Source of the DNA: an uncultured Pseudomonadota bacterium
Lineage (GTDB): Bacteria; Pseudomonadota; Alphaproteobacteria; Rs-D84
Length of the DNA: 64,000 nt
Assembly (NCBI GenBank): GCA_946613885.1
Contig: CAMOGA010000003.1
Location: 11,764 to 75,763, forward strand
Reading direction: 5' to 3'
Made by a program: the position numbers and the translations under genes. A model generated the notes under the pieces. The model ran no database searches and was not told the DNA's origin. It saw only the letters and a list, made by a program, of their open reading frames with translations. How positions within the stretch are numbered: position 1 is the first letter of the stretch; every line of letters begins with the position of its first letter. Of this stretch, positions 7,695 through 60,964 are shown piece after piece.

Positions 7695-8515
7695 AAAACG
7701 TTTTAATTACTGGGGCAAATGGTCAGTTGGGTCGAGAATTGTCATACATGGTGCCTGGCGCGATTTTAACAGACAAAGATGATATGGATATAACAAATGA
7801 AAATGTTGTTAAATATTGGGTTGACAAGAACCATATAGATACAATTATAAATTGTGCGGCGTATACCGCGGTTGATAAAGCCGAAGAAGATGTAAAATTA
7901 GCCACCAAAATTAATGTTGATGGTCCGCGTAATTTGGCAAAATCCGGTGCAAAAATAATCCATATCTCGACAGATTATGTTTTTGATGGAAATGGTCATA
8001 AACCATATCAGGTACACGATAAAACAAATCCGTTATCTGTTTATGGAAAAACAAAATTAGCCGGCGAAAACGAAGTATTAAAATATGCAGATAACGCGAT
8101 AATTATTCGTACAGCATGGCTTTATTCTCCGTATGGTAATAATTTTGTAAAAACTATGCGCCGTTTGGGAACTGAAAAAACAGTATCTGTTGTTTCTGAT
8201 CAAATCGGAACACCAACATATGCGTATGATTTGGCTGAAGCGATAGTGCAGATTTTGCCACAAATGACTATGCAGAATCGTGGTATTTATCATTTTACAA
8301 ATGAAGGTGTATGTTCTTGGTATGATTTTGCACATGAAATAATGAAAATATCAGGTTTAAAATGCGATGTAATACCAATACCTTCATCTGCATATCCGAC
8401 CAGGGCAAAACGTCCGTATTACAGTGTATTGGATAAAAGCAAAATAAAAGATACATTTGGTATAAAAATAAATCATTGGACAACCGCATTACAAAATTGT
8501 TTACAAAGATTTTGA
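7691..8515 (+). CDS. rfbD: dTDP-4-dehydrorhamnose reductase
   Basis: 274 aa. ILITGANGQLG Rossmann motif, INCAAYTAVDKAE, GTPTYAYDLA. ATGA overlap with rfbC. Confidence 0.9.
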   Translation: MKNVLITGANGQLGRELSYMVPGAILTDKDDMDITNENVVKYWVDKNHIDTIINCAAYTAVDKAEEDVKLATKINVDGPRNLAKSGAKIIHISTDYVFDGNGHKPYQVHDKTNPLSVYGKTKLAGENEVLKYADNAIIIRTAWLYSPYGNNFVKTMRRLGTEKTVSVVSDQIGTPTYAYDLAEAIVQILPQMTMQNRGIYHFTNEGVCSWYDFAHEIMKISGLKCDVIPIPSSAYPTRAKRPYYSVLDKSKIKDTFGIKINHWTTALQNCLQRF

Positions 8516-10533: not shown

Positions 10534-10749
10534 TAATATTATCCAATCTGTTTTGGGGATGATTCTGACATTGGTACAAAATTAAAACCACCACAAAAGT
10601 GGTGGTTTGAATTTTCTGGTCGTGCTTAATTAGCAATTCTCGAACCGATATTGTTAAGATTGGGCGGGATATTGAAGGTGTAAAACGAATATTAAATGTT
10701 GAAAAATAGGATCTGTTGGAATATAATCATAATGTACAAAAGATATTAA

Positions 10750-11850: not shown

Positions 11851-12266
11851 CACAAAATTAAAACCACCACAAAAAGTGGTGGTTTGAATTTTCTGGTCGG
11901 GGCGATTCCTCCTCGATACGCAATAATAAAAATCTATAAAAACTCGTATTTACAAACTCCGTTTTTATGATTTTTCTAATTGTGTATTCTCGTATTGGCC
12001 ATGCGCTTCGCTCTGGCCGATCCTTTCGTCCCGCCTTAGGCACAAAATTAAAACCACCATAAAGGTGGTTTGAATTTTGTGGTCGGGGCGATTCCTGCCT
12101 CGATACGCAATAATAAAAATCTATAAAAACTCGTATTTACAAACTCCGTTTTTATGATTTTTCTAATTGTGTATTCTCGTATTGGCCATGCGCTTCGCTC
12201 TGGCCGATCCTTTCGTCCCGCCTTAGGCACAAAATTAAAACCACCATAAAGGTGGTTTGAATTTTG
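11851..12266. repeat. tandem direct repeats (about 190 + 187 bp, third unit runs into tRNA-Pro)
   Basis: Units start at 11851, 12041 and 12228 with CACAAAATTAAAACCACC. Each contains the hairpin AAACCACC..GGTGGTTT and the 12-nt tRNA 3' end TGGTCGGGGCGA (11894, 12080, 12267). Confidence 0.9.
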
Positions 12267-12343
12267 TGGTCGGGGCGAAAGGATTCGAACCTTCGACACC
12301 TTGGTCCCAAACCAAGTACTCTACCAGACTGAGCTACGCCCCG
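12267..12343 (-). tRNA. tRNA-Pro (anticodon UGG), CCA encoded
   Basis: Hand-folded cloverleaf: CGGGGCG acceptor, anticodon loop TTTGGGA, T-arm GAAGG-TTCGAAT-CCTTT, ACCA end. Confidence 0.9.
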
Positions 12344-36602: not shown

Positions 36603-37250
36603 ATGCAGATTGAAAGCAATGGTATTTTGATAAACATAAAACCGTTTTCTGAACGTGATGCGATTGCGCACATATTTACTAAAAATAGCGGTGTGTTGAC
36701 TGGAATGTTGCGCGGTGCGGTTGTTGCACGCAAAAATAAACCACTAATCGGTCAGATTGGACATGTTATATGGAATGCACGTTTGGATTCTCAGTTGGGC
36801 GTATTTCATTTTGAAAATGAAAAAAATTTATCTGCACCATTAATATTAAATAATGATTTGTTGAAAATTATGAACGCAACATTTTCATTGATTTATGCAT
36901 TAATTCCAGAACGCGAATCATACGAACAATTATATCTACGAACGATTGATTTGTTATCAAATTTACCGGACACAAATAATCCATATGATTTATATTTACA
37001 ATGGGAAATTGACTTGTTAAAAGATTTGGGATATGCGCTGGATTTAACAAAATGTTCTGGATGTGGGCGAACCGATAATTTGTGTTATTTATCACCCAAG
37101 ACAGGTCGGGCTGTGTGTGAAAATTGTGGTGTGCCATATGTTGATAAATTATATAAATTGCCAATAAATTTAAATGTGACAAAGCGTTTTATTAACAACA
37201 TTTGCGCCATCCAGGGAATTGACGTTCCATCCGCCAGAAAAATGTTTTAA
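36603..37250 (+). CDS. recO: DNA repair protein RecO
   Basis: N-terminal OB-fold pattern (GILINIKPFSERDAIAHIFTKNSG) and Zn motif CSGCG...CENCG. Confidence 0.88.
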   Translation: MQIESNGILINIKPFSERDAIAHIFTKNSGVLTGMLRGAVVARKNKPLIGQIGHVIWNARLDSQLGVFHFENEKNLSAPLILNNDLLKIMNATFSLIYALIPERESYEQLYLRTIDLLSNLPDTNNPYDLYLQWEIDLLKDLGYALDLTKCSGCGRTDNLCYLSPKTGRAVCENCGVPYVDKLYKLPINLNVTKRFINNICAIQGIDVPSARKMF

Positions 37251-37325: not shown

Positions 37326-38147
37326 ATGATTTGGACAATCTTAATCCTGTTGATTGCAATCGCGTTATATGTGTTTGGCGGCATGCTGTTCAGACAAGAT
37401 AACAAGAAACCATCAATATTAGATATTGTATTGCACAAATGCGTATCTGTAATCGCAATTATGTTGATTGCTGGTTGTGTATGCCGTTTGTGGACACCAA
37501 TGTATTTGGTAAATACAAATCCTGCAATTTTGCAAGAAATGGTTCAAAATATGCAGGCACAACAAGAAGCCAACAAGAATAAAATCGTTCGTCAATATGT
37601 TGCAAAACATGCAGATGAAATGATTGGTCATGCACCAATTGCTGGTAATGTAGATGCCAAGAACACAATCTTCTTATGGTCTGATTATTCTTGCCCATAT
37701 TGCCGTCGTGTTCATGGTGAATTATCACGTGTTTTGTCAGAACGTGATGACGTTCGTATCGTGTTGAAGAACTTTTCTATCCATGGGGCTTTGTCTGATG
37801 CACCAGCCAAGGCAGTTATTGCTGCAAAAATCCAAGACAATGCAAAGGCAGCAGCGTTGGATAAATTGTTGATGGATCGTGAATATTACACCCAGGATGA
37901 TTTGAAAGATCAAGAAAAATTGCCTGCAAAAATCCAAGCAAACGTCATGAAATTGGCGCAAGAAGTTGGTTTGGATACAAAGCAATTGGAAACAGATATG
38001 GAAGGCGACACAGTCAAAGCCGAATTGCAAAATGTTCGTGAATTGGCACAACGTTTTGAAATCAGCGGAACACCTTATTTGATTATCAATGATAAAGCGT
38101 TCCCAGGTGCGATTCCATATGCTCAAATTGTTGATGCATTGAAATAA
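37326..38147 (+). CDS. membrane-anchored DsbA-family thiol:disulfide oxidoreductase
   Basis: N-terminal TM helices. Thioredoxin-fold active site SCPYCRR. Confidence 0.85.
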   Translation: MIWTILILLIAIALYVFGGMLFRQDNKKPSILDIVLHKCVSVIAIMLIAGCVCRLWTPMYLVNTNPAILQEMVQNMQAQQEANKNKIVRQYVAKHADEMIGHAPIAGNVDAKNTIFLWSDYSCPYCRRVHGELSRVLSERDDVRIVLKNFSIHGALSDAPAKAVIAAKIQDNAKAAALDKLLMDREYYTQDDLKDQEKLPAKIQANVMKLAQEVGLDTKQLETDMEGDTVKAELQNVRELAQRFEISGTPYLIINDKAFPGAIPYAQIVDALK

Positions 38148-50718: not shown

Positions 50719-51234
50719 ATGACATATATAAGAAACACAAAATACATAACAATTAATAAAGACGGTGTTTTTGTTGGTGGAAAACCTGCAACACATTATC
50801 GCGGGGTAAAAATAGCGTCTGATTCTTGGGAGCATGAAAGCTTTTGTGCTATTCAGGCACGTTATCCGAAAGTTATGGAAATACATGTGTTATCATCTAA
50901 AACCTGTGGTGTGTATGCAAAGGCAGGAAATCCGTCTGCGGAAACTGGGCCAAATGTATGGTGTCGTGTAAAATTTACCAATGGACATATTGGTTCGTGG
51001 GTGCTTCGTAATAAATTTGAATCAGGTAAAGACTTTTGTGCGGAAAACTGTCTTTATGTTTGCATGGCAGAGCTTTGCTTAGAGGAAGATTTTCGCAATG
51101 CAGTATTTGGTGCCAAATTGTTTGATGCTTTAAAAACCTCAGATTTATCTGTTTTTGTTAATAATCCTTTACAAATAAACGGATATGAAATCGTTGTAAA
51201 GAAAATTGCTGAAACACACCAAAACAAAAGATAA
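50719..51234 (+). CDS. array cassette A1 (family A, AT-rich type)
   Basis: Start at MTYIRNTKYITINKDGVFVGGKPATHYRG (AAGGA RBS). Family blocks GNPS..GPNVWCRVKF, CAENC. Tail LQINGYEIVVKKIAETHQNKR*. Confidence 0.8.
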   Translation: MTYIRNTKYITINKDGVFVGGKPATHYRGVKIASDSWEHESFCAIQARYPKVMEIHVLSSKTCGVYAKAGNPSAETGPNVWCRVKFTNGHIGSWVLRNKFESGKDFCAENCLYVCMAELCLEEDFRNAVFGAKLFDALKTSDLSVFVNNPLQINGYEIVVKKIAETHQNKR

Positions 51235-51246
51235 AAGGAAAATAAG

Positions 51247-51687
51247 ATGTCAGAAAAAAACGAAAATCAAACAAACAAAAAAACCAAAGATTTGTCATCA
51301 TCTTTTCCGCTTTACATGATGTGTGTTCTGGTCGCGGGAATGATTGCTGCCGAGATATATCTGACGTTTTGTGGAAAATCAGAATACAAAAATGTCGTTG
51401 TTAAAAACAACAAAGATAAAATATTAGTTCGTGATATTTGTACCGACAAACAAGAAAGAATTTTAACTGGTATTGGTATGCATGATGCTGGTAGCGACTA
51501 TAAATATTTGGTTCCTGGGGATACAATCATCGTCAAAGCAGACAAGGGTGTTTATAAAAACAATAAAGTGCTTTATTATCCAACCATACAATACAATCGT
51601 GATATCACTTTGGCCAGACAGCAACGCGCTAAATTTAATCAAATCAAAGATTCAGTGTTTGCCGAAACACAACAAATCAAAAGATAA
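51247..51687 (+). CDS. array cassette B1 (family B, N-terminal TM anchor)
   Basis: 146 aa. TM helix FPLYMMCVLVAGMIAAEIYLTF. About 90 percent identical to ORF 57502. Tail SVFAETQQIKR*. Confidence 0.85.
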   Translation: MSEKNENQTNKKTKDLSSSFPLYMMCVLVAGMIAAEIYLTFCGKSEYKNVVVKNNKDKILVRDICTDKQERILTGIGMHDAGSDYKYLVPGDTIIVKADKGVYKNNKVLYYPTIQYNRDITLARQQRAKFNQIKDSVFAETQQIKR

Positions 51688-51700
51688 AAGGTTCGTAATC

Positions 51701-52015
51701 ATGGCAAAATCATTGTATGTAAAGGATATTGTAAGTGCACCATATATATGTACTGTGCCGAGCGGCGGTGTAAATGCGATTAAATGTTATCCAGATGCAA
51801 AAACATACCATATTGGTGGTGTAAAGATAGGTTATTCTGCAAAAGAACAAACATTGATTGTTTTATTGCGTTATTCAAGAGAACAAAATGACAAAGCCAT
51901 AAGAACGTTTAAAGAACTGTTTTGTCCTGGACAGGTTGCTTGGGAAAAACAGAAGGGTACTGAAACAATTTTGGAAGAACATTTACGAGAAAGAACACAA
52001 CAAATCAAAAGATAA
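51701..52015 (+). CDS. array cassette C1 (family C)
   Basis: Start MAKSLYVKDIVSAPYICTVPSGGVNAIKCYPDA at ATG 51701 behind the conserved junction. The track ORF 51473 is an upstream extension through the junction. Tail ERTQQIKR*. Confidence 0.75.
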   Translation: MAKSLYVKDIVSAPYICTVPSGGVNAIKCYPDAKTYHIGGVKIGYSAKEQTLIVLLRYSREQNDKAIRTFKELFCPGQVAWEKQKGTETILEEHLRERTQQIKR

Positions 52016-52028
52016 AAGGTTCGTAACC

Positions 52029-52571
52029 ATGGCAAAATCTGATAAACGGGATTTTTATATTGATTTGGCAACGAATACTGTTGAAAGTTTTCGGGATTCT
52101 GCCGATGCCAATTATACGATGACATATAATTTTGGTGATTGGCAGGTGTCCATCAGTTTTTATCGGAATAATATCAAAGGCGGGGCGATATATAAACGCG
52201 ACAATCTGTGTGAGCCGGTTGCCAAATGGTCGCGTTATATGGAAAGCGATAAATCTGTGTTTGATATGTTAATTGCGGTGCAAAGCAAAAGTTTAGGTCG
52301 TCCATATGTAAACCCGTTTGACAAAAAAGCAAATGTGATAGAACGTGTTGTCGGGGCACCTTATATATGCACTATACCCGCTGGTGGTTTGCGTGCGATT
52401 AAATGTTATCCTGATGCCATAACTTGTTTTATTCGCGGTATAAAAATAGGATATTCTGAGCGCGAAAAAACTATGATTGTCCCACTAAAGACGCCTGTGT
52501 CTGAAATAGAAAAGTGTAAAACAATTTTGGAAGAACATTTACAAGAACGAACACAACAAATCAAAAGATAA
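52029..52571 (+). CDS. array cassette C2 (family C with ~100-aa N-terminal extension)
   Basis: Start MAKSDKRDFY at ATG 52029 behind the junction. C-terminal half GAPYICTIPAGGLRAIKCYPDA...TILEEHLQERTQQIKR* aligns with C1. Confidence 0.75.
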   Translation: MAKSDKRDFYIDLATNTVESFRDSADANYTMTYNFGDWQVSISFYRNNIKGGAIYKRDNLCEPVAKWSRYMESDKSVFDMLIAVQSKSLGRPYVNPFDKKANVIERVVGAPYICTIPAGGLRAIKCYPDAITCFIRGIKIGYSEREKTMIVPLKTPVSEIEKCKTILEEHLQERTQQIKR

Positions 52572-52584
52572 AAAGGTAAATAAA

Positions 52585-53070
52585 ATGACAGATATACCAA
52601 ATACAGAATATATTACGGTTAATAAAGATGGGTGTTTTGTTGGGGGAAAACCTGCGACAACATATCGAGGTGAGGAAATATATGGTATAGATTATGTAAA
52701 AAAAGCATTTGAATTGACGCAGAGACAAAATCCAGATGTGGAAGAATTTCATGTCGGTGCGTTTAAAACACCTGGTAAATATGCCAAGGCTGGCAATCCA
52801 TCCGGTGAATGTGGCCCGAACGCATGGTGTCGTATAAAGTTGCGTGGCATGGATGTACCCTCGGCTTTGTGGGTCTTTGACTGTTCATACCCTTCGGTGA
52901 CCGATTGTGCGTATTTCTGTGCGAACTATTGCATGTCCTTTGTTCGCGCCCGCGTGGGTTTCCGCACCGCAGTTTTGGAAGCGGCAGAATCGCAGGTGCG
53001 TCCACGAATAACACCAAATCAAATTATGATTGAAAAAATCCAACAAGATACAAAAGTAAAAGGTATATAA
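52585..53070 (+). CDS. array cassette A2 (family A, GC-rich patch, truncated tail)
   Basis: MTDIPNTEYITVNKDGCFVGGKPATTYRG..., NAWCRIKL, GC-rich segment 52838-53005, tail ...IMIEKIQQDTKVKGI*. Confidence 0.85.
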   Translation: MTDIPNTEYITVNKDGCFVGGKPATTYRGEEIYGIDYVKKAFELTQRQNPDVEEFHVGAFKTPGKYAKAGNPSGECGPNAWCRIKLRGMDVPSALWVFDCSYPSVTDCAYFCANYCMSFVRARVGFRTAVLEAAESQVRPRITPNQIMIEKIQQDTKVKGI

Positions 53071-53071
53071 A

Positions 53072-53764
53072 ATGACAGAATTGGAAAATGTAAGACAGGT
53101 GACTCGGGACCTAAATGAATGGTTAGGCGAAATGCCTTATTTTCCGAACACAGAATATATCACTGTAAATGCGGACGAAATTTTCGTTGGTGGAAAACCT
53201 GCAACGCATTATCTGGGATACGAAATAATTTCACCAGAGTATATTAAAAAGACTTTTAAAGAAATACAAAATAAATTTTCAAATCTGCAAGAAATCCATA
53301 TATTATCATCGTCAACCGATGGTTATGTGGCACCAATACGAAAAGAACGTATAGCGACTGGAGGGTATGCAGCCAGTGAATTACGGCCAAGCCTGCAACA
53401 CGGCAACGCGGCATGGTGTCGTATAAAATTAAATGATGGAACAGAGGGAATTTGGACGTATGAATGCTACTATGGTACTTTTTCAGATTGTGCTGAAAGA
53501 TGTGCACAGGATACTATGAGGGATTTGACTAATGAAAAGATTCCTGCTACTCGATTTATTTTAGCAATTGCAACGAAATCCAAAACGAAATGCACAGCAG
53601 CAAAAAAACAAAATACAAAACCAGTACCACAGCCGGAAACAGAACTTAAACAAACATTAAGAAATACAGATTTATCCAAACTTGCTGGGAAAACTGTTGA
53701 ATTAAATGGATACAAAATCATGATTGAAAAAACCAAACAAGATATAATAACCAAAGGAAAATAA
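53072..53764 (+). CDS. array cassette A3 (family A with N-terminal extension, AT-rich type)
   Basis: ..PNTEYITVNADEIFVGGKPATHY.., AAWCRIKL, DCAERCAQD, tail LNGYKIMIEKTKQDIITKGK*. 1-nt spacer from A2. Confidence 0.85.
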   Translation: MTELENVRQVTRDLNEWLGEMPYFPNTEYITVNADEIFVGGKPATHYLGYEIISPEYIKKTFKEIQNKFSNLQEIHILSSSTDGYVAPIRKERIATGGYAASELRPSLQHGNAAWCRIKLNDGTEGIWTYECYYGTFSDCAERCAQDTMRDLTNEKIPATRFILAIATKSKTKCTAAKKQNTKPVPQPETELKQTLRNTDLSKLAGKTVELNGYKIMIEKTKQDIITKGK

Positions 53765-53765
53765 C

Positions 53766-54053
53766 ATGGCAGAAAAAGCGGAATCAATAATTTTATCAAC
53801 CGGCAAAGATGAAGACGGTGTTTTTGTACGGGCATATAATACGCATTGGAATACGTTCATTGTAAGTCAAAAGAATTATTATGCTAATTATTATCCTGAG
53901 CGCAGTAGAAATATAGATTTATCAGAATTACAACGTGGTGACCGGGTAATATTTGTTCGTCTTCAGTATAAATATTTTATTGAAAATCATTTAACAATGG
54001 AACAAATAAGAAATTCCTTTATCCAAGAGCGAACAAAACAAGACGGCAGATAA
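53766..54053 (+). CDS. array cassette S1 (singleton, 95 aa)
   Basis: 1-nt spacer from A3. Tail ..FIQERTKQDGR* resembles the common tail. Confidence 0.65.
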   Translation: MAEKAESIILSTGKDEDGVFVRAYNTHWNTFIVSQKNYYANYYPERSRNIDLSELQRGDRVIFVRLQYKYFIENHLTMEQIRNSFIQERTKQDGR

Positions 54054-54139
54054 AAATGCTTGCCCTGTAATTTTTTTGACTTAATACGCATGGCGCTATA
54101 TTTATGCGTAAATATAATGGATTTTTTTTAATAAAATAC

Positions 54140-54168
54140 TTGATTTTTTTATAATATTTGGCTATTAT
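54140..54168 (+). promoter_or_regulatory. candidate rpsB promoter
   Basis: TTGATT (54140-54145), 17-nt spacer, TATTAT (54163-54168). A ~115-nt structured leader lies before ATG 54284. Confidence 0.4.
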
Positions 54169-54283
54169 GGTGGCACGCATTTAATGCGAATAACACAGGC
54201 AACAGACATAATTTCTGTCCAAACACGTTTGGTTTTTTACGTCTGCTGACCGAGGATAACAACAGAAAACAAAGGATTTAGAT

Positions 54284-55138
54284 ATGGCATTGCCAACTTT
54301 TACAATGAAACAATTAATGGAAGCGGGCGTTCATTTTGGACATCATACACGTCGTTGGAACCCGTTAATGACACCTTATGTTTATGGGGTCAAAGATAAA
54401 ATTCATATTATCAATTTGAACAAAACTGCACCGTTGTTGCACCGTTCTTTGGTTGCTTTGGAAGCAATCGCAGCGGCTGGTGGAAAAATCTTGTTTGTTG
54501 CAACAAAACATCAGGCAAAAGATATTGTCAAAGATGCGGCAGAACGTTGTGGTCAATATTATGTAAATAACCGTTGGTTGGGTGGTATGTTGACTAACTG
54601 GACAACTGTTTCACAAAGTATTCGTCGTTTGAAAAAAATGGAAAACGATATTGCTAATGCAGACAAATTGGGATTAACCAAAAAAGAAGTCGGTGTTATG
54701 ACCAAAGAAGTTGCTAAATTGCGTGATATTTTCGGTGGTATTTTGGAAATGCACGGTATTCCTCAGGCGATGATTGTTATTGATGTGCCACGTGAAATGA
54801 ACGCTGTTCATGAAGCAAAAGTTTTGGACATTCCAACAATTGCTATCTGTGATACTAATGCAAACCCAGAATTGGTTGATTACCCAGTTCCAGGTAACGA
54901 TGATGCATCACGTGCAACACAATTGTATTGCGATTTATTCGTAGATGCAATTTTGTCTGGTATTGAAAAAAGATTGGGCGGCGCAGCTGGCAAAAAGGCA
55001 GACGTTGATAACGCAGAGGCCGCTGCAGAAGAATACGAACATGATTTAAAGGTCAAAGAAGCAAAACAAAAATCAAAAACTTCCGAAGCCCGCGAAGTTC
55101 GTCGCAGCAAATTGGCAGACAAAGCCGACAAACAATAA
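54284..55138 (+). CDS. rpsB: 30S ribosomal protein S2
   Basis: MKQLMEAGVHFGHHTRRWNP... typical S2. K/E/A-rich C-terminal extension. Confidence 0.97.
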   Translation: MALPTFTMKQLMEAGVHFGHHTRRWNPLMTPYVYGVKDKIHIINLNKTAPLLHRSLVALEAIAAAGGKILFVATKHQAKDIVKDAAERCGQYYVNNRWLGGMLTNWTTVSQSIRRLKKMENDIANADKLGLTKKEVGVMTKEVAKLRDIFGGILEMHGIPQAMIVIDVPREMNAVHEAKVLDIPTIAICDTNANPELVDYPVPGNDDASRATQLYCDLFVDAILSGIEKRLGGAAGKKADVDNAEAAAEEYEHDLKVKEAKQKSKTSEAREVRRSKLADKADKQ

Positions 55139-55160
55139 CTTATAAAGAAAGGAAATAAAA

Positions 55161-56030
55161 ATGGCAGAAGTGACAGCTAAACTGGTTCAAGAATTGCGTG
55201 AAAAAACATCCGCAGGTATGATGGATTGTAAAAAAGCATTGGTTGAAAACAATGGCGATATCGAGGCCGCTGCTGATTGGTTGCGCCAAAAAGGTATCGT
55301 AAAGGCTGCATCTAAGGCGGGCCGTGTTGCGGCATCTGGTTTGGTGACGGTTGTTAAATGCGATAATATGGGTTGTGTTGTTGAATTAAACGCAGAAACA
55401 GATTTCGTTGCTAAAAATGATAAATTCCAATCTTTGGTTGCAAACGTTGCAAACAAAGCACTGGAATTGTCTGGTGATTTCGATGCAACATTAAAGGCAG
55501 TCCAAGATGATATCGCTGCAACAATTTCCACAATTGGTGAAAATATGTCTTTGCGCCGTATTGCCAAGGTTAATGGTGACCATATTTATTCTTATGTTCA
55601 CAATGCTTTGGTTCCAGGTATGGGACAAATTGGTGTTGTTGTTGCAATCAATGGCGATGATGCACGTATTGACGAAATTGGTGGCAAAATCGCAATGCAT
55701 ATTGCTGCGAACAAACCTGAATTTATGACTATTGCTGACGTTGATCCAAAGGCGGTTGAACGCGAAAAGAAAGTATTCATTGAATCTGGGGCAACAGCGG
55801 GTAAACCTGAAAACATTGTTGAAAAAATGGTCGAAGGTCGTATCCAAAAATGGTATGCGGAATCAGTATTAGAAGAACAACCATTTGTTATGGACCCTTC
55901 TAAGAAAGTTAAAGATGTTGTCGCAGAACACGGCGGTAAATTGGCCGGGTTCGCATACTATGTCTTGGGCGAAGGTATCCAAAAACGCGAAGACAATTTG
56001 GCTGATGAAGTTGCAAAAATGTTGAAATAA
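55161..56030 (+). CDS. tsf: elongation factor Ts
   Basis: VTAKLVQELREKTSAGMMDCKKALVENNGDIEAAADWLRQKG... typical EF-Ts. Confidence 0.97.
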   Translation: MAEVTAKLVQELREKTSAGMMDCKKALVENNGDIEAAADWLRQKGIVKAASKAGRVAASGLVTVVKCDNMGCVVELNAETDFVAKNDKFQSLVANVANKALELSGDFDATLKAVQDDIAATISTIGENMSLRRIAKVNGDHIYSYVHNALVPGMGQIGVVVAINGDDARIDEIGGKIAMHIAANKPEFMTIADVDPKAVEREKKVFIESGATAGKPENIVEKMVEGRIQKWYAESVLEEQPFVMDPSKKVKDVVAEHGGKLAGFAYYVLGEGIQKREDNLADEVAKMLK

Positions 56031-56059
56031 TTTCGCATAAATCAAAAAAAACGGAGAGA

Positions 56060-56089
56060 GTCGCACAGGTTTTATTTGTGCGACTTTTT
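56060..56089 (+). terminator. rho-independent terminator after tsf
   Basis: GTCGCACA-GGTTTTATT-TGTGCGAC followed by TTTTT. Confidence 0.75.
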
Positions 56090-56109
56090 CAGCAAAAAAG
56101 GGATGAAAT

Positions 56110-56628
56110 ATGGCGAACATTCCAAATACAGAATATATCACAATTAATAAAGATGATGTTTTTGTTGGTGGAAAACCGGCGATAAAATATCGTGGGGTAG
56201 AAATAGCGTGGATTGAATATTTATGGGAACATTTTGAAGCGATACAAAAAATACATCCAGATATTATGGAAATGCACGCCCTGTCATCAGAAACACGTGG
56301 TGAATATGGCGTGATTGGTAACCCATCGGCAAAACACGGTTACAACGCATGGTGTCGTGCAAAATTTAATAATGGACGTGTTTTCCCATGGGTGTTTGTT
56401 AGAGAGTATGATTTTATGGATGAATGCGCAAGTCGTTGTGCATATCAAACTCTGGATGACTTTCGTCTTTCTGCACAAATGCGTTCTGCCGCTTTGGGGA
56501 CACCAGATCATTTGATAAAGGCATTAAAAGACGTGGATTTATCTAACTGTGTTGGCAAACCTGTGCAATTAAACGGATATGAAATCGTTGTAAGAAAACT
56601 TGCTGAAACTAAACAAAATAAAAGATAA
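56110..56628 (+). CDS. array cassette A4 (family A, AT-rich type)
   Basis: MANIPNTEYITINKDDVFVGGKPAIKYRG.., NAWCRAKF, ECASRCAYQ, tail VQLNGYEIVVRKLAETKQNKR*. Confidence 0.85.
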   Translation: MANIPNTEYITINKDDVFVGGKPAIKYRGVEIAWIEYLWEHFEAIQKIHPDIMEMHALSSETRGEYGVIGNPSAKHGYNAWCRAKFNNGRVFPWVFVREYDFMDECASRCAYQTLDDFRLSAQMRSAALGTPDHLIKALKDVDLSNCVGKPVQLNGYEIVVRKLAETKQNKR

Positions 56629-56640
56629 AAGGAGTAAATA
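56572..56640 (+). repeat. 69-nt direct repeat, copy 1 (3' tail of A4 plus junction); copy 2 at 56988-57056
   Basis: AACGGATATGAAAT[C/T]GTTGTAAGAAAACTTGCTGAAAC[T/C]AAACAAA[A/T][T/C]AAAAGATAAAA... is repeated on both sides of cassette 56641..56979. Confidence 0.85.
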
Positions 56641-56979
56641 ATGTCTAAAATTTTAAAAGAAAAATGGAAAAATGTTCGTGCTGCAAAAAAAGCAAAAAAG
56701 ATCGCAGAATCTGAAATAGTCGAAACAAGCACTGAAAGGCCAGATAATGTTTGCATATTTAATGAGATTCAACGGATTCCAGATAGGTTGAAAGATAAAG
56801 AATTTCCTGCACCAATGATAATTGTTCGTCATTGTGAACATTTTTCAGAAGGTCAAATCTGTGATAACGCAGATTGTCCTATGCATGATAAAAATGTGCA
56901 ATATATATCTGCATTAAAAAAACACAAACAAGAACGTCGTGAATTTTTCCACATGTTATTTCATGGTCGTAAAAGATAA
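56641..56979 (+). CDS. array cassette S2 (singleton, basic N-terminus, Cys/His cluster)
   Basis: 112 aa. HCEHFSEGQICDNADCPMHD looks like a small metal-binding motif. Tail ..HGRKR*. Bracketed by the 69-nt direct repeats. Confidence 0.65.
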   Translation: MSKILKEKWKNVRAAKKAKKIAESEIVETSTERPDNVCIFNEIQRIPDRLKDKEFPAPMIIVRHCEHFSEGQICDNADCPMHDKNVQYISALKKHKQERREFFHMLFHGRKR

Positions 56980-56987
56980 AATAAAAA

Positions 56988-57043
56988 ACGGATATGAAAT
57001 TGTTGTAAGAAAACTTGCTGAAACCAAACAAATCAAAAGATAA
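56988..57043 (+). pseudogene. orphan 3' tail fragment of a family-A cassette
   Basis: Encodes only NGYEIVVRKLAETKQIKR* with no upstream body. Near-identical to the end of A4. Confidence 0.8.
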
Positions 57044-57056
57044 AAAGGTAAATAAA

Positions 57057-57488
57057 ATGGCGAATCCATACAGTGTGTTTGACGAAAATGGACACTATAA
57101 ACCCGGAACATATAATAACGGGTATGGTTCCAAAACAGGAATGCCGATTAAAAAAAATCCAGAATGGCATGAAAGTGATTTTCATGGCACGTCCGCTGTT
57201 TATCCAACGTATGTTTATAATGTGTATCCTTATCGTACAATGGGTGGTTTATTTGGTAGTAAACCTGTCACATACTATAATGTTCGTGTGCGGTTTAATT
57301 CTGAATCCAAAGGTATGGAGCCACCACGCGCATTGGATTGTGCAGAAATTTATGTGGATAACAGCCCTTATCAATCATATTGGGAAGCGGTATATGAATT
57401 TCATGATGGTTTGTTTAAATCTGCACAACAAAAGGCAAATGATTTTTATAGCGAAATTGTAAATCAAATACGTTCGAATAAAAGATAA
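57057..57488 (+). CDS. array cassette S3 (singleton, 143 aa)
   Basis: Start MANPYSVFDENGHYKPG at ATG 57057 behind the junction. The track ORF 57015 is an upstream extension. Tail ..IVNQIRSNKR*. Confidence 0.7.
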   Translation: MANPYSVFDENGHYKPGTYNNGYGSKTGMPIKKNPEWHESDFHGTSAVYPTYVYNVYPYRTMGGLFGSKPVTYYNVRVRFNSESKGMEPPRALDCAEIYVDNSPYQSYWEAVYEFHDGLFKSAQQKANDFYSEIVNQIRSNKR

Positions 57489-57501
57489 AAGGTTCGCAAT
57501 C

Positions 57502-57942
57502 ATGACAGAAAAAAACGAAAATCAAACAAATAAAAAAACCAAAGATGTATCTTCATCTTTTCCACTTTATATGATGTGTGTTCTGGTCGCGGGAATGATT
57601 GGTGCCGAGATATATCTGACATTTGGTAGAAAATCAGAATACAAAAATGTCGTTGTTAAAAACAACAAAGATAAAATATTAGTTCGTGATATTTGTACCG
57701 ACAAACAAGAAAGAATTTTAACTGGTATTGGTATGCATGATGCTAGCAGCGACTATAAATATTTGGTTCCTGGGGATACAATCATCGTCAAATTCGACAA
57801 AGATGAGTATAAAAGCAATAAAGTGCTTTATTATCCATTTATACAATACAATCGTGACAGTACCTGGGCCAGACAGCAACGCGCTAAATTTAACCAAATC
57901 AAAGATTCTGTGTTTGCCGAAACGCAACAAAATAAAAGATAA
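57502..57942 (+). CDS. array cassette B2 (family B, N-terminal TM anchor)
   Basis: 146 aa. 14 differences from B1 by hand alignment. Tail SVFAETQQNKR*. Confidence 0.85.
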   Translation: MTEKNENQTNKKTKDVSSSFPLYMMCVLVAGMIGAEIYLTFGRKSEYKNVVVKNNKDKILVRDICTDKQERILTGIGMHDASSDYKYLVPGDTIIVKFDKDEYKSNKVLYYPFIQYNRDSTWARQQRAKFNQIKDSVFAETQQNKR

Positions 57943-57956
57943 AAAGGTTCGCAATC

Positions 57957-58514
57957 ATGACAGATACTAAAAATACAGAATATATCACTGTAAATGCCAA
58001 TGGGATTTTTGTTGGGGGAAAAACCACAACAACATATCGTGGTGAAGATATATGCGGTATGCAAGATGTCAAAAATATGTTTGCATGGATGCAGGAACAA
58101 AATCCAGAAATAGAGGAATTTCATATTGGTGCATTTGAAACGCGTGGCGAACATGCAAAACCGGGCAATCCGAATGGTGTGTTTGGTCCAAATGCATGGT
58201 GTCGTGTGAAATATAAAAATGGTAACTTGGGTGCTTGGGTCTTCAACTACACGAGCAATTCGGCCGCCGGTTGTGCGAACTACTGTGCGGGCAACTGCGC
58301 GTACTACGTCCGCGGCGACTCCGCCTTTCGCGCGGCGGTGTTTGGTGCGACAATTAAAAAACAAAATGTCAAACCTGTGACACAGCCAGAAGCAGAACTT
58401 AAACGAAAATTACAAGGAACAGATTTATCAAAATTGGTTGGCAAACCTGTGCAATTAAACGGTTATAAAATCATTGTTGAAAAAATTGCCGAAACGCAAC
58501 AAAATAAAAGATAA
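57957..58514 (+). CDS. array cassette A5 (family A, GC-rich patch)
   Basis: MTDTKNTEYITVNANGIFVGGKTTTTYRG.., NAWCRVKY, GC-rich patch 58236-58349, tail VQLNGYKIIVEKIAETQQNKR*. Confidence 0.88.
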   Translation: MTDTKNTEYITVNANGIFVGGKTTTTYRGEDICGMQDVKNMFAWMQEQNPEIEEFHIGAFETRGEHAKPGNPNGVFGPNAWCRVKYKNGNLGAWVFNYTSNSAAGCANYCAGNCAYYVRGDSAFRAAVFGATIKKQNVKPVTQPEAELKRKLQGTDLSKLVGKPVQLNGYKIIVEKIAETQQNKR

Positions 58515-58527
58515 AAGGTTCGCAATC

Positions 58528-59088
58528 ATGACAGATATACCAAATACAGAATATATTACAGTTAACAAAGACGGAATTTTTGTTGGGGGAAAACCTGCGA
58601 CAACATATCGTGGTGAAGAAATACGTTATTCAAACGTTGTGCGGAAATCTTTTGCCGACATCCAAAGATTAAATAAAAATGTTGCGGAATTGCATGTGTC
58701 GTCATCGGAAACATTTGGCGAATATGCAGAACCGGGTAATCCATCAGGAATCCATGGTCGAAACGCATGGTGTCGGGTGAAATTTAATGATGGATATGTT
58801 GCATCGTGGGTCTTCCGCTACACGTACAGTTCGGTCGCCCGTTGTGCGCTCAACTGTGCGTACGACTGCGCGCACGACATCCGTGAGCTCGCGCCGTTTC
58901 GTTTGGCGGTGTTGAGTGCGAATGATAAACAAAATTCACAGCCAAAACAAATTCAAAATCCAATCGTGTTATGTGATAAAAATGGAATTTATCATGTCAA
59001 AATTGGACATGAAGAATTTTCCGGCACACGCACAGAGGTTTTGAAACAAATGACATTGCGTATAAAAAGTTTTTTAAAGGTTCGGTAA
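58528..59088 (+). CDS. array cassette A6 (family A, GC-rich patch, divergent C-terminus)
   Basis: Start MTDIPNTEYITVNKDGIFVGGKPATTYRG at ATG 58528 behind the junction. GC-rich patch 58807-58920. Unrelated tail ..RIKSFLKVR*. Confidence 0.88.
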   Translation: MTDIPNTEYITVNKDGIFVGGKPATTYRGEEIRYSNVVRKSFADIQRLNKNVAELHVSSSETFGEYAEPGNPSGIHGRNAWCRVKFNDGYVASWVFRYTYSSVARCALNCAYDCAHDIRELAPFRLAVLSANDKQNSQPKQIQNPIVLCDKNGIYHVKIGHEEFSGTRTEVLKQMTLRIKSFLKVR

Positions 59089-59120: not shown

Positions 59121-59187
59121 TTGATATCATTTGTTGCAAAGCAAGATTTTTCATGCTATTATTTCTCGTGATACAGAAAAAGGTTTT

Positions 59188-60405
59188 ATGATGAAAAATA
59201 CTCTGATGTTTGAATTAGAACAACGCGGATTTATTAATCAATGTTCAAATATTAATGCCGTTGCAGATTTATTGGATAACGGGCAAATCGCGGTTTATCT
59301 GGGTTCTGATCCAACTGCGGATTCTTTGCATGTGGGACATTTGGTGCCAATTATGATGATGCGTTGGTTGCAAAAATATGGTCATAAACCAATTATGTTG
59401 GTTGGTGGTGCAACCGGTCGAATTGGTGACCCGTCTGGCCGTGATACAGGTCGCCCAATGATGACTGAGGAAGTTTTACAAAAAAATGTTGCCGGGTTGA
59501 AAAAATCTTATTCTAAGTTTTTGAATTTTGGCGATGGGGAATCTGATGCGATTATCGTTGATAATTATGATTGGATGAAAAAATATTCGCATTTGGATTT
59601 TTTGGCGCAATATGGTTTGGATTTTACAATTCCACGTATGTTATCAATGGAAAGTGTAAAGAAACGTCTGGAAAACGGTATGACGTTTTTGGAATTTAAT
59701 TATATGACTTTTCAGGCGGTTGATTTCTTGACTCTTTATAAAGAACACAATTGTGTAATGCAACTGTGCGGTGCAGACCAATGGGGTAATGCAATTATGG
59801 GGGTGGAATTAATTCGCAAAAAAATGGGTAAAGAAGCATTTGTTTTGTCAACTGCACTGATTACAGATTCAAATGGAAACAAAATCGGAAAATCTGCCGG
59901 AAACGCAGTATGGGTTAATGAAGATAAAACAACCCCATATGAATATTATCAATATTTCCGCAATACACCGGACGAATTGGTTGAAAAGTTTTTAAAGATA
60001 TTCACAGAAATTCCATTGGAAGAAATTGCTGAATTGTCTAAAAAACAGGGCGCAGAATTAAATGATGTAAAAAAACGTCTGGCATTCGCAGCAACCGAAA
60101 TTGCGCATGGAACAGACGCGGCAAAATCCGCAGAAGATGCAGCAGCGGCATTATTCGGCGGTGGTGCAAACAATGCAAATGTGCCGTCAATTGATATTGA
60201 CATGCCAGAATCAATGGGGATAGTTGATTTCTTGGTTGCGGTAAAATTATTTGATTCTAAATCAGAAGCCCGCAGAACCATAGAACAGGGTGGTATCCAG
60301 ATTGATGGTGAAAAAATTACCGATAAAAATTACGTTGTTGAACCGCGCGAATCCATAATGGTCCAGCGTGGCAAGAAAGTATTTTTGCGTGTTAATGTAA
60401 AATAA
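59188..60405 (+). CDS. tyrS: tyrosine--tRNA ligase
   Basis: Start at MMKNTLMFELEQRGF (AAAAGG RBS). HVGH (HIGH) and KIGKS (KMSKS) motifs. C-terminal S4-like domain. Confidence 0.95.
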   Translation: MMKNTLMFELEQRGFINQCSNINAVADLLDNGQIAVYLGSDPTADSLHVGHLVPIMMMRWLQKYGHKPIMLVGGATGRIGDPSGRDTGRPMMTEEVLQKNVAGLKKSYSKFLNFGDGESDAIIVDNYDWMKKYSHLDFLAQYGLDFTIPRMLSMESVKKRLENGMTFLEFNYMTFQAVDFLTLYKEHNCVMQLCGADQWGNAIMGVELIRKKMGKEAFVLSTALITDSNGNKIGKSAGNAVWVNEDKTTPYEYYQYFRNTPDELVEKFLKIFTEIPLEEIAELSKKQGAELNDVKKRLAFAATEIAHGTDAAKSAEDAAAALFGGGANNANVPSIDIDMPESMGIVDFLVAVKLFDSKSEARRTIEQGGIQIDGEKITDKNYVVEPRESIMVQRGKKVFLRVNVK

Positions 60406-60449: not shown

Positions 60450-60526
60450 GCGCCCATGGCTCAATTGGATAGAGCAACAGATTTCTAATCTGTGGGTTGC
60501 AGGTTCGAGTCCTGCTGGGCGCGCCA
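60450..60526 (+). tRNA. tRNA-Arg (anticodon UCU), CCA encoded
   Basis: Hand fold: GCGCCCA acceptor, anticodon stem ACAGA/TCTGT, loop TTTCTAA, T-arm GCAGG-TTCGAGT-CCTGC. Confidence 0.9.
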
Positions 60527-60964
60527 AAAATTAAATCGGGCAATGTCCCGATTTTATTTTGTCCCAGCAGGACGAGAACCTGGTTCGACAAGCAGTAGAT
60601 TTGGTAAGTGAAACGCGACCAAATCGTCACGATTGCCGCGCAGGCATTTATGCCGAGCGAGTACGCAGATAAACAATTAAGAAAATTTTAAAAAATCGCA
60701 GTTAACAAGATTTTTTTAATTTTATTTTATGTTTATCAAGGAAAACTGCTGGGCGCGCCAAAAATTAAATCGGGCAATGTCCCGATTTTATTTTTGTCCC
60801 AGCGGGACGAGAACCTGGTTCGACAAGCAGTAGATTTGGTAAGTGAAACGCGACCAAATCGTCACGATTGCCGCGCAGGCATTTATGCCGAGCGAGTACG
60901 CAGATAAACAATTAAGAAAATTTTAAAAAATCGCAGTTAACAAGATTTTTTTAATTTTATTTTA
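60512..60964 (+). repeat. tandem direct repeat (2 x ~220-234 bp) starting with the last 15 nt of tRNA-Arg
   Basis: CTGCTGGGCGCGCCAAAAATTAAATCGGGCAATGTCCCGATTTTATTTT... occurs at 60512 and again at 60746. Homology runs to about 60964. Confidence 0.9.

Follow-up and report, generated by a model that had tools for sequence, protein, structure and literature searches.

Shuffling of ORFan genes between short repeats has been described in T4-type phages, where an ORFan lying between two PeSL repeats in RB49 corresponds to a single PeSL in phi1 and where mini-circles have been detected (Arbiol et al. 2010, PMC2839356). Effector-immunity arrays of type VI secretion systems (T6SS) provide a second precedent: their modules join by a homologous anchor and by a non-homologous or short-homology join, and orphan 3′ fragments are left behind (Kirchberger et al. 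2017, PMC5361080). Here we analysed a stretch of 64,000 nucleotides (nt) of contig CAMOGA010000003.1 (assembly GCA_946613885.1), referred to as the window, in which a gene of 112 amino acids (aa), cassette E (56641-56979, + strand), stands between two direct repeats in an array of small ORFan genes located between tsf and tyrS. The left repeat is the 3′ end of an intact gene, A4, followed by a junction, and the right repeat is an orphan copy of the same tail, followed by cassette F. The array was compared with 57 related loci (designated by L numbers), the contigs bearing E being reached through the members of its protein clusters. Of these loci, L045 belongs to ERZ27316343, L047 and L048 to ERZ28653446 and ERZ27256983, and L057 to ERZ12302853. 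The same site was found without E, and E was found at other positions. We propose that E is probably a passenger cassette, placed between A4 and F, or lost, by general recombination and without a dedicated recombinase.

PeSL-mediated ORFan shuffling in T4-type phages is the closest analogue among described systems. In both cases an ORFan bracketed by two repeats in one genome is matched by a single repeat copy in a close relative (here the window and locus L045), and in both cases hyperplastic arrays of small ORFans are found. The PeSL route, in which a circle carrying one chimeric repeat re-inserts at another repeat, also resembles the one considered below. However, a PeSL consists of a promoter and a terminator stem-loop, whereas the repeat studied here is a coding tail followed by a ribosome-binding junction, with no hairpin. 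PeSL shuffling takes place in phages and its circles have been detected, whereas the present locus flanks rpsB-tsf and tyrS on a bacterial chromosome and no circles were observed; the cassettes described here are moreover apparently shared between species. The locus also resembles the Rhs, contact-dependent inhibition (CDI) and T6SS arrays, in which homology-anchored insertions leave orphan 3′ fragments. It differs from them in that no toxin or immunity domains were detected in the ten cassettes scanned and in that the cassettes, which encode 95 to 230 aa, have no large N-terminal delivery region. In addition, the orphan 3′ fragment found here (56987-57043) is limited to 18 codons and lies downstream of the insert; it is a second copy of the end of an upstream gene that is still intact, rather than a displaced C-terminus.

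The original prediction had described cassette E as enclosed by direct repeats. Alignment of positions 56571-56630 with 56986-57045 bears this out, with 56 of 60 positions identical (93%) and a start-to-start distance of 415 nt. Allowing for one 1-nt indel, the two copies remain similar across the ribosome-binding region, up to the ATG codons that follow at 56641 and 57057. The second copy had been said to start at 56988 and to be almost unchanged: the pair itself stands, but the AAC in register with the left copy lies at 56987, and the terminal ~10 nt, which form the junction, diverge more than the rest (GGAGTAAATA versus AGGTAAATAAA). The complete left repeat (56571-56640, + strand) comprises the last 18 codons of A4 (NGYEIVVRKLAETKQNKR, then the stop codon), the junction and the ribosome-binding site of E. 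A4 itself (56110-56628, + strand) is a family-A gene of 172 aa whose body and tail are intact by family alignment and whose orthologue in L045 is 98.3% identical at the nt level. The complete right repeat (56986-57056, + strand) comprises the orphan family-A tail, which encodes NGYEIVVRKLAETKQIKR and a stop codon at 56987-57043, and the junction that gives the ribosome-binding site of F. As had been predicted, this second copy is a tail only: the open frame ahead of it extends over just 23 codons, without a family-A body, and the gap between the stop codon of E and the orphan tail measures 6 nt and contains no family-A sequence. A 39-nt core of the repeat (at most 3 mismatches) has three copies in the window, in the tails of A1 and A4 and in the orphan, for 0.00 copies expected from 100 shuffles. 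At a smaller scale, an identical 12-mer junction core, TAAAAGATAAAA, is present at 56619-56630 and at 56970-56981 (+ strand), the latter being E's own copy (..RKR, stop codon and A-run). The join between E and the tail (56977-57003, + strand) consists of the E stop codon, AATAAA and the start of the orphan tail, and resembles the native 3′ flank of E.

The empty site was found in L045, which is, judging from the identity of its rpsB (99.1%), tsf (98.6%) and tyrS (98.4%), the same species as the window. The array of L045 runs in the order tsf, A4, F, B2, a 345-aa fused family-A gene, E, a short segment with a mini-open reading frame (mini-ORF), a frameshifted A6 and tyrS. At A4 a single tail is present and F follows directly, this F being 95.4% identical to the window cassette F (143 aa, 57057-57488, + strand). 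Window positions 53753-56646 aligned with L045 3163-6056 (98.65%) and positions 56986-58022 with L045 5981-7016 (94.7%), the two alignments overlapping on one tail, L045 5981-6056. The A4|F boundary of L045 is a clean minus-cassette allele, of the kind that the original prediction had suggested looking for. In the more distant L010, the A4 orthologue and its tail are likewise followed directly by an F-like gene, the first 33 aa of which are 76% identical. The 3′ junction of the orphan tail matches the A4|F junction of these two empty alleles. Based on these alignments, F would be the ancestral right-hand neighbour of A4: the A4-F order in both L045 and L010, together with the likeness of the 3′ flank of E in L045 to the flank of distant E homologues, suggests that E arrived.

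E occupies other positions in several of the loci. In L045, E is 99.4% identical to the window copy and lies 2 kb further down the same array; in L045 and L046 it is located between the 345-aa family-A gene and the A6 orthologue. L047 and L048 are, according to their rpsB, tsf and tyrS (82%, 86% and 84% identical to those of the window), a different species. There E is 95.9% identical and belongs to the array located upstream of rpsB, where it comes after an A1 orthologue and is followed by the same AATAAA linker, the orphan tail and a 304-aa family-A gene. In L057, a tail-E-tail-F block lies behind a hybrid family-A gene (A6/A4). E is always directly behind a family-A tail, and the E|tail join is identical behind the differing family-A genes of the window, L047/L048 and L057. 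Bodiless tails starting with NGY were found after E only among the 57 loci, with one borderline case in L031 (57 in-frame codons upstream). Seen in this light, the right-hand tail travels with E, so that it need not be created anew at the A4|F site.

The sequences on the left of E point to exchange within the tails. The upstream junction of E, AAAATAAAAG(ATAAAAG)GAGTAAATA, is recognisable even before the distant homologue in L049. The left tail of the window is of A4 type up to about nt 40, matching the A4 tail of L045, and then passes into the E-associated junction; its last ~30 nt (CAAAATAAAAGATAAAAGGAGTAAATA) are the sequence found upstream of E in L045. In L047, the left tail is of A1 type in its 5′ part (VVKK) and of A4/E type in its 3′ part (LAETKQNKR). 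The left tails of both the window and L047 thus look chimeric. On the other side of E, the pattern ATAAAAA-(N)GG-(N)AT occurs in L045, L049 and L001 too. In L045, a segment of ~110 nt (8340-8455) takes the place of the orphan tail; it could encode 28 aa (MKCRKKTVHWYKKMKKQVDAYNAQQKTR, then a stop codon), and its first ~30 nt resemble the start of a family-A tail (flank AAAAAAGGGGCATGAAATGTCGAAAGAAAAC versus AAAAAACGGATATGAAATTGTTGTAAGAAAAC). Since the bases after the stop codon in L045, L049 and L001 (ATAAAAA.GG.(C/T)AT) resemble the tail start AAACGGATAT, the tail-less context of L045 may be the older one for E.

Family-A tails are 77-96% identical among paralogues and the bodies 50-62%, and the tails form near-identical islands of 57 nt plus junction, scattered over both arrays. 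Their consensus over 54 coding nt is NGY(E/K)I(V/I)V.K(I/L)AE..Q.KR, followed by the stop codon. When the arrays of the window and L045 were compared, most internal homology breakpoints fell in tails, in junctions or in the conserved family-A head. Fused family-A genes with a double body were found in L006 (6530-7408, 292 aa), L045 (6951-7988, 345 aa) and L047 (1040-1954, 304 aa), and the hybrid gene of L057 (1-320) has a body 91% identical to the A6 orthologue of L045 and a last ~110 nt that are A4-like. These fused and hybrid genes are products of recombination between paralogues and show that such exchange is frequent and ongoing. The last codons and the junction also co-vary by lineage across unrelated cassettes (nearly all cassettes end with ..QQ(I/N)KR and stop in window-like loci, but with ..KTK and stop in L006/L007), a pattern consistent with concerted evolution by gene conversion. 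Cassettes were also compared with core genes, using the window arrays and L047, L045, L009 and L015. The cassettes (A1, E, a 264-aa DUF3419-like gene and an 87-aa gene) are 92-97% identical at the nt level between species, versus 80-88% for rpsB, tsf and tyrS. In several independent assemblies, identity changes abruptly where the array begins or ends. This difference suggests that a cassette pool is shared between species.

On this basis, we propose that the recombination substrate would be the conserved family-A 3′ end, i.e. 54 coding nt and ~15 nt of junction and ribosome-binding site, giving 60-70 nt of near-identity. A small circle made of E and one tail could integrate by a tail-by-tail exchange of the Campbell type to give tail-E-tail; as an alternative route, unequal exchange between array copies would produce the same structure. 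Recombination between the two flanking tails would remove E and leave one tail, which is the state of L045 at A4|F. A short-homology crossover between the native 3′ flank of E (AAAAA.GG.(C/T)AT) and the tail start (AAACGGATAT) probably created the first E|tail join. Both homologous and short-homology recombination are therefore envisaged, with a mini-circle or unequal exchange as the route. The outcome would be like that of Campbell integration, in which a circle recombining at a short homology yields a repeat-insert-repeat structure, here deduced from footprints, and the blurred E|tail join would match the one-sided homologous anchor plus microhomology of homology-facilitated illegitimate recombination. 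Both are mechanisms of a general nature, known from model organisms. The orphan tail may be kept at least partly because its 3′ end is the native translation-initiation region of F. The idea that the junction units have served as exchange points has to be refined accordingly in scope: the site does appear to be one of recombination, but the exchanged sequence would be the 54-nt family-A coding tail with its junction and not the generic core alone. The reading of the geometry as insertion or excision is supported by the empty L045 allele and by the presence of E at other array positions (L045/L046, L047/L048 and L057), the two checks that the original prediction had proposed. As for the enzymatic background, recO is present in the window (36603-37250), so that the RecFOR pathway has been kept at least in part.

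Several points weigh against this proposal. RecA-type dependence and a circular intermediate are both deduced from the sequences, recA was not seen in the 64-kb window, and no circular form or mixed population was observed. A homology of 57-70 nt at 93% identity lies close to the minimum at which RecA-dependent exchange is efficient. Whether E was gained or lost would follow from parsimony over three genomes. E can also sit in an array unbracketed, as in L045, where a tail is found on its left side only. Finally, the right tail of L047 is wholly of A4/E type and not the reciprocal chimera predicted by one Campbell crossover into the A1 tail. A simple one-crossover Campbell model was consequently rejected for L047, its left tail fitting the model and its right tail not, which implies that at least some moves need two exchanges, a different donor or template switching.

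The relatives of E have a bearing on the alternatives. A word-indexed search returned a single other 90%-identity cluster for E, in addition to four close variants inside its own cluster, and a profile search returned 22 distant relatives of ~100 aa. Four cysteines (C38, C65, C74 and C79) are invariant in this family. E had no sequence match in Pfam or the PDB and no NCBIfam match. AlphaFold models of E reached a predicted local distance difference test (pLDDT) score of 63 with 6 sequences and of 91 with 24 sequences, and the latter model had no fold match in the PDB (Foldseek). As far as sequence and model can tell, E shows no sign of a nuclease, recombinase or transposase function. Distant homologues of E, with 68% and 51% aa identity, were found in L001 (9770-10434) and L049 (3879-4975), respectively. 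They are flanked by an ORFan of 210-217 aa and by rlmE, and a decaying duplicate of the rlmE 5′ end is found upstream of them (nt 1-36 and 113-231 kept in L001, nt ~32-93 in L049). This is a second repeat-insert-repeat geometry, at an unrelated target, but the structure is old and ambiguous. Two further readings of these loci were tried and rejected. The rlmE duplication does not belong to a larger tandem duplication that includes the upstream gene, g210 being only 26% identical to a 136-aa gene (expectation value E = 0.004). The short ORF after the E homologue of L001 (MAKLAQSENTEYSR, then a stop codon) is not a family-A head, as alignment with L049 identified it as the start of a different, 79-aa gene. 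Another distant member of the E family (101 aa) was found in L051 (397-1563) after lepA; a 128-aa cysteine-rich ORF comes next, and then what appears by eye to be the N-terminus of a P4-like integrase, for which no homologue was found in the window or the other loci. A DsbA-like thioredoxin-fold gene is present in the window (37326-38147) and may be relevant to the cysteine-rich cassette proteins.

Replicative template switching, by copy-choice or by microhomology-mediated break-induced replication, offers another way to build the structure. A replicating strand would copy A4 and its tail, jump to a donor tail-E and return to the start of the A4 tail at the short similarity AAA.GG.TAT, so that a single step would duplicate the tail. 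This would account for the wholly A4-type right tail of the window, and the E|tail join indeed sits in a patch of short similarity between the native 3′ flank of E and the tail start; the E-family block of L001 and L049, bracketed by the duplicated rlmE 5′ end, also has the expected geometry. The same join in three contexts indicates, however, that it was inherited and moved as a unit and was not remade each time. The later moves are better explained by exchange within tails. We therefore consider template switching unlikely as the general explanation.

Could E itself be a selfish mobile gene, its product or that of a partner causing it to insert with long duplications of the target? No other cassette was found with an orphan tail, E occupies four positions in close relatives, and its distant homologues in L001 and L049 adjoin the duplicated rlmE 5′ end. 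Its identity between species is also 95.9%, versus 82-86% for the core genes, but A1 and the 264-aa gene are over-conserved to the same extent. Neither the sequence nor the fold of E resembles those of nucleases, recombinases or transposases, and the age and ambiguity of the rlmE structure reduce its value as a precedent. A direct target duplication bracketing an insert is what insertion sequences and transposons leave. In contrast to these elements, the duplication measures 60-70 nt instead of 2-15 nt, no transposase was found, and the right repeat moves with the cassette. No inverted repeats were found around E and no terminal inverted repeats bound the unit. A selfish E is accordingly very unlikely in our opinion.

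We assign a similarly low probability to the orphan tail being the remnant of a full family-A gene that once stood between E and F and whose body was deleted. Decay of family-A genes does occur, as seen from the frameshifted copy of L024 (~1900-2509), which decays in place directly upstream of an intact gene, and from the frameshifted A6 of L045, and deletions between array repeats clearly occur as well. The progressive deletion series behind E that such a decay should leave in related genomes was not found; instead, exactly the same join is shared by two species and four assemblies, with no intermediate, and only 6 nt separate E from the tail. In L045 and L010, A4, tail and F follow one another with nothing between, and the 3′ junction of the orphan is that of the empty allele. 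Two independent precise deletions and a transfer would be needed to reconcile these data with a remnant.

A dedicated site-specific system, integron-like or other, acting on the junction units appears more improbable still. The resemblance to integrons is real in several respects: the cassettes are co-oriented, packed, mostly or apparently promoterless, strain-variable and mobile in position, and a conserved boundary element, the junction, co-varies by lineage with the last codons. One distant E-family member, that of L051, adjoins what appears to be the start of a P4-like integrase. Integrons nevertheless rely on IntI and attC, whereas no tyrosine recombinase lies near these arrays, no folded inverted repeat was found and the crossover is not fixed. 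Scans of the genes that adjoin the two arrays and of 36 large window ORFs outside them detected no integrase, recombinase or transposase, and the L051 integrase has, as mentioned, no counterpart in the window or the other loci. DNA folding of both strands of eight segments taken from junctions and tails gave minimum free energies of -1 to -4.7 kcal/mol and z scores of +0.7 to -1.3, i.e. no hairpin was predicted. Not a fixed core but 54 nt of ordinary coding sequence make up the duplicated unit. The junction core that belongs to E itself (56970-56981) is not the crossover point, which argues against a fixed cut site. An assembly artefact is hardly credible: although the source is an uncultured organism known from a metagenome-assembled genome and repeats can mislead assemblers, the reads exceed the 60-70-nt repeat in length, as does the k=141 with which several contigs were assembled, and E with its orphan tail was recovered independently in four assemblies from different samples and assemblers (the window, L047, L048 and L057).

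The alleles with E, without E and with E elsewhere provide footprint evidence, in natural genomes, that ~60 nt of shared coding sequence can suffice for a gene to move through an array without a dedicated recombinase; the bacteria concerned are otherwise undergoing genome reduction. They also mark rpsB-tsf-tyrS of Enterousia as a hypervariable cassette locus, apparently shared between species. As all array families are ORFans, this locus is also a defined place to seek functions in host or phage interaction in an uncultured gut lineage. More generally, the defining features of integrons and transposons need to be tested before either is recognised in a repeat-cassette-repeat geometry. A broader view would hold that the two rpsB-tsf arrays form an integrase-free cassette-exchange system. 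The conserved 3′ tail and its junction would then act as a portable recombination address, by which small genes hop inside one array, from one array to the other and from one species to another, and the E family would be especially mobile and insert with long target duplications (the tail and possibly the rlmE 5′ end in L001/L049). We regard this generalisation as unlikely.

The window is a bacterial chromosome segment with a G+C content of ~37%. Its host is a Candidatus Enterousia-like alphaproteobacterium of the order Rs-D84, with a genome below 1 Mb; Candidatus Enterousia is described as a lineage of this order whose genomes do not reach 1 Mb (PMC12306168). On either side of rpsB-tsf lies an array of small, tightly packed genes, all cassettes being on the + strand and separated by 1-20-nt spacers. 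Array 1 (50719-54053) lies upstream of rpsB (54284-55138) and comprises, according to its ORFs and translations, the seven cassettes A1, B1, C1, C2, A2, A3 and D, a content that varies between strains. After tsf (55161-56030) comes array 2 (56110-59088), with A4, E, the orphan tail, F, B2, A5 and A6, and then tyrS (59131-60405). The subtilase, the DUF3078 protein and the Pom-like outer-membrane protein are, with rpsB, tsf and tyrS, the neighbours of the arrays. Most cassettes end with ..QQ(I/N)KR and a stop codon, followed by AAAAGG, a few bases and ATG. Array content varies among the window, L045, L047, L006 and L052. Promoter-like matches (44) were not enriched over shuffled sequences (39.3 ± 7.1), and no promoter or terminator match was found inside 56571-56640 or 56986-57056. 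A scan of the arrays with Rfam returned tRNA-Arg as the sole match.

All cassettes are ORFans. The ten that were scanned had no significant match in Pfam, PHROGs, PADLOC or NCBIfam. Family A is limited to 39 clusters among 5.8 billion proteins, and its genomic matches all come from uncultured gut or rumen Alphaproteobacteria, several of them labelled Candidatus Enterousia. Families A and E were both absent from the viral contig, GenBank phage and PLSDB plasmid collections. Cassette B (146 aa), for which a membrane segment is predicted, has one copy in each array, at 51247-51687 and 57502-57942, its first 235-300 nt being 94-95% identical between the two copies. In L005, an intergenic repeat of ~200 nt (908-1111 and 1601-1803, 92-93% identical) separates cassettes, compared with junctions of 12-20 nt elsewhere.

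Other repeats were noticed in the vicinity of tRNA genes. Downstream of array 2, tRNA-Arg(tct) (60450-60526) is followed by two direct repeats of 178 nt (60552-60729 and 60787-60964) that are 98% identical and each hold a terminator-like hairpin. The interval from tyrS to tRNA-Arg is extended in L045 by ~1.2 kb, with a 283-aa gene on the minus strand. Elsewhere in the window, a repeat of ~48 nt occurs four times (10573-10622, 11852-11899, 12039-12085 and 12226-12272), the last copy overlapping tRNA-Pro (12267-12343, minus strand); these four repeats may be att-like remnants of integrated elements.

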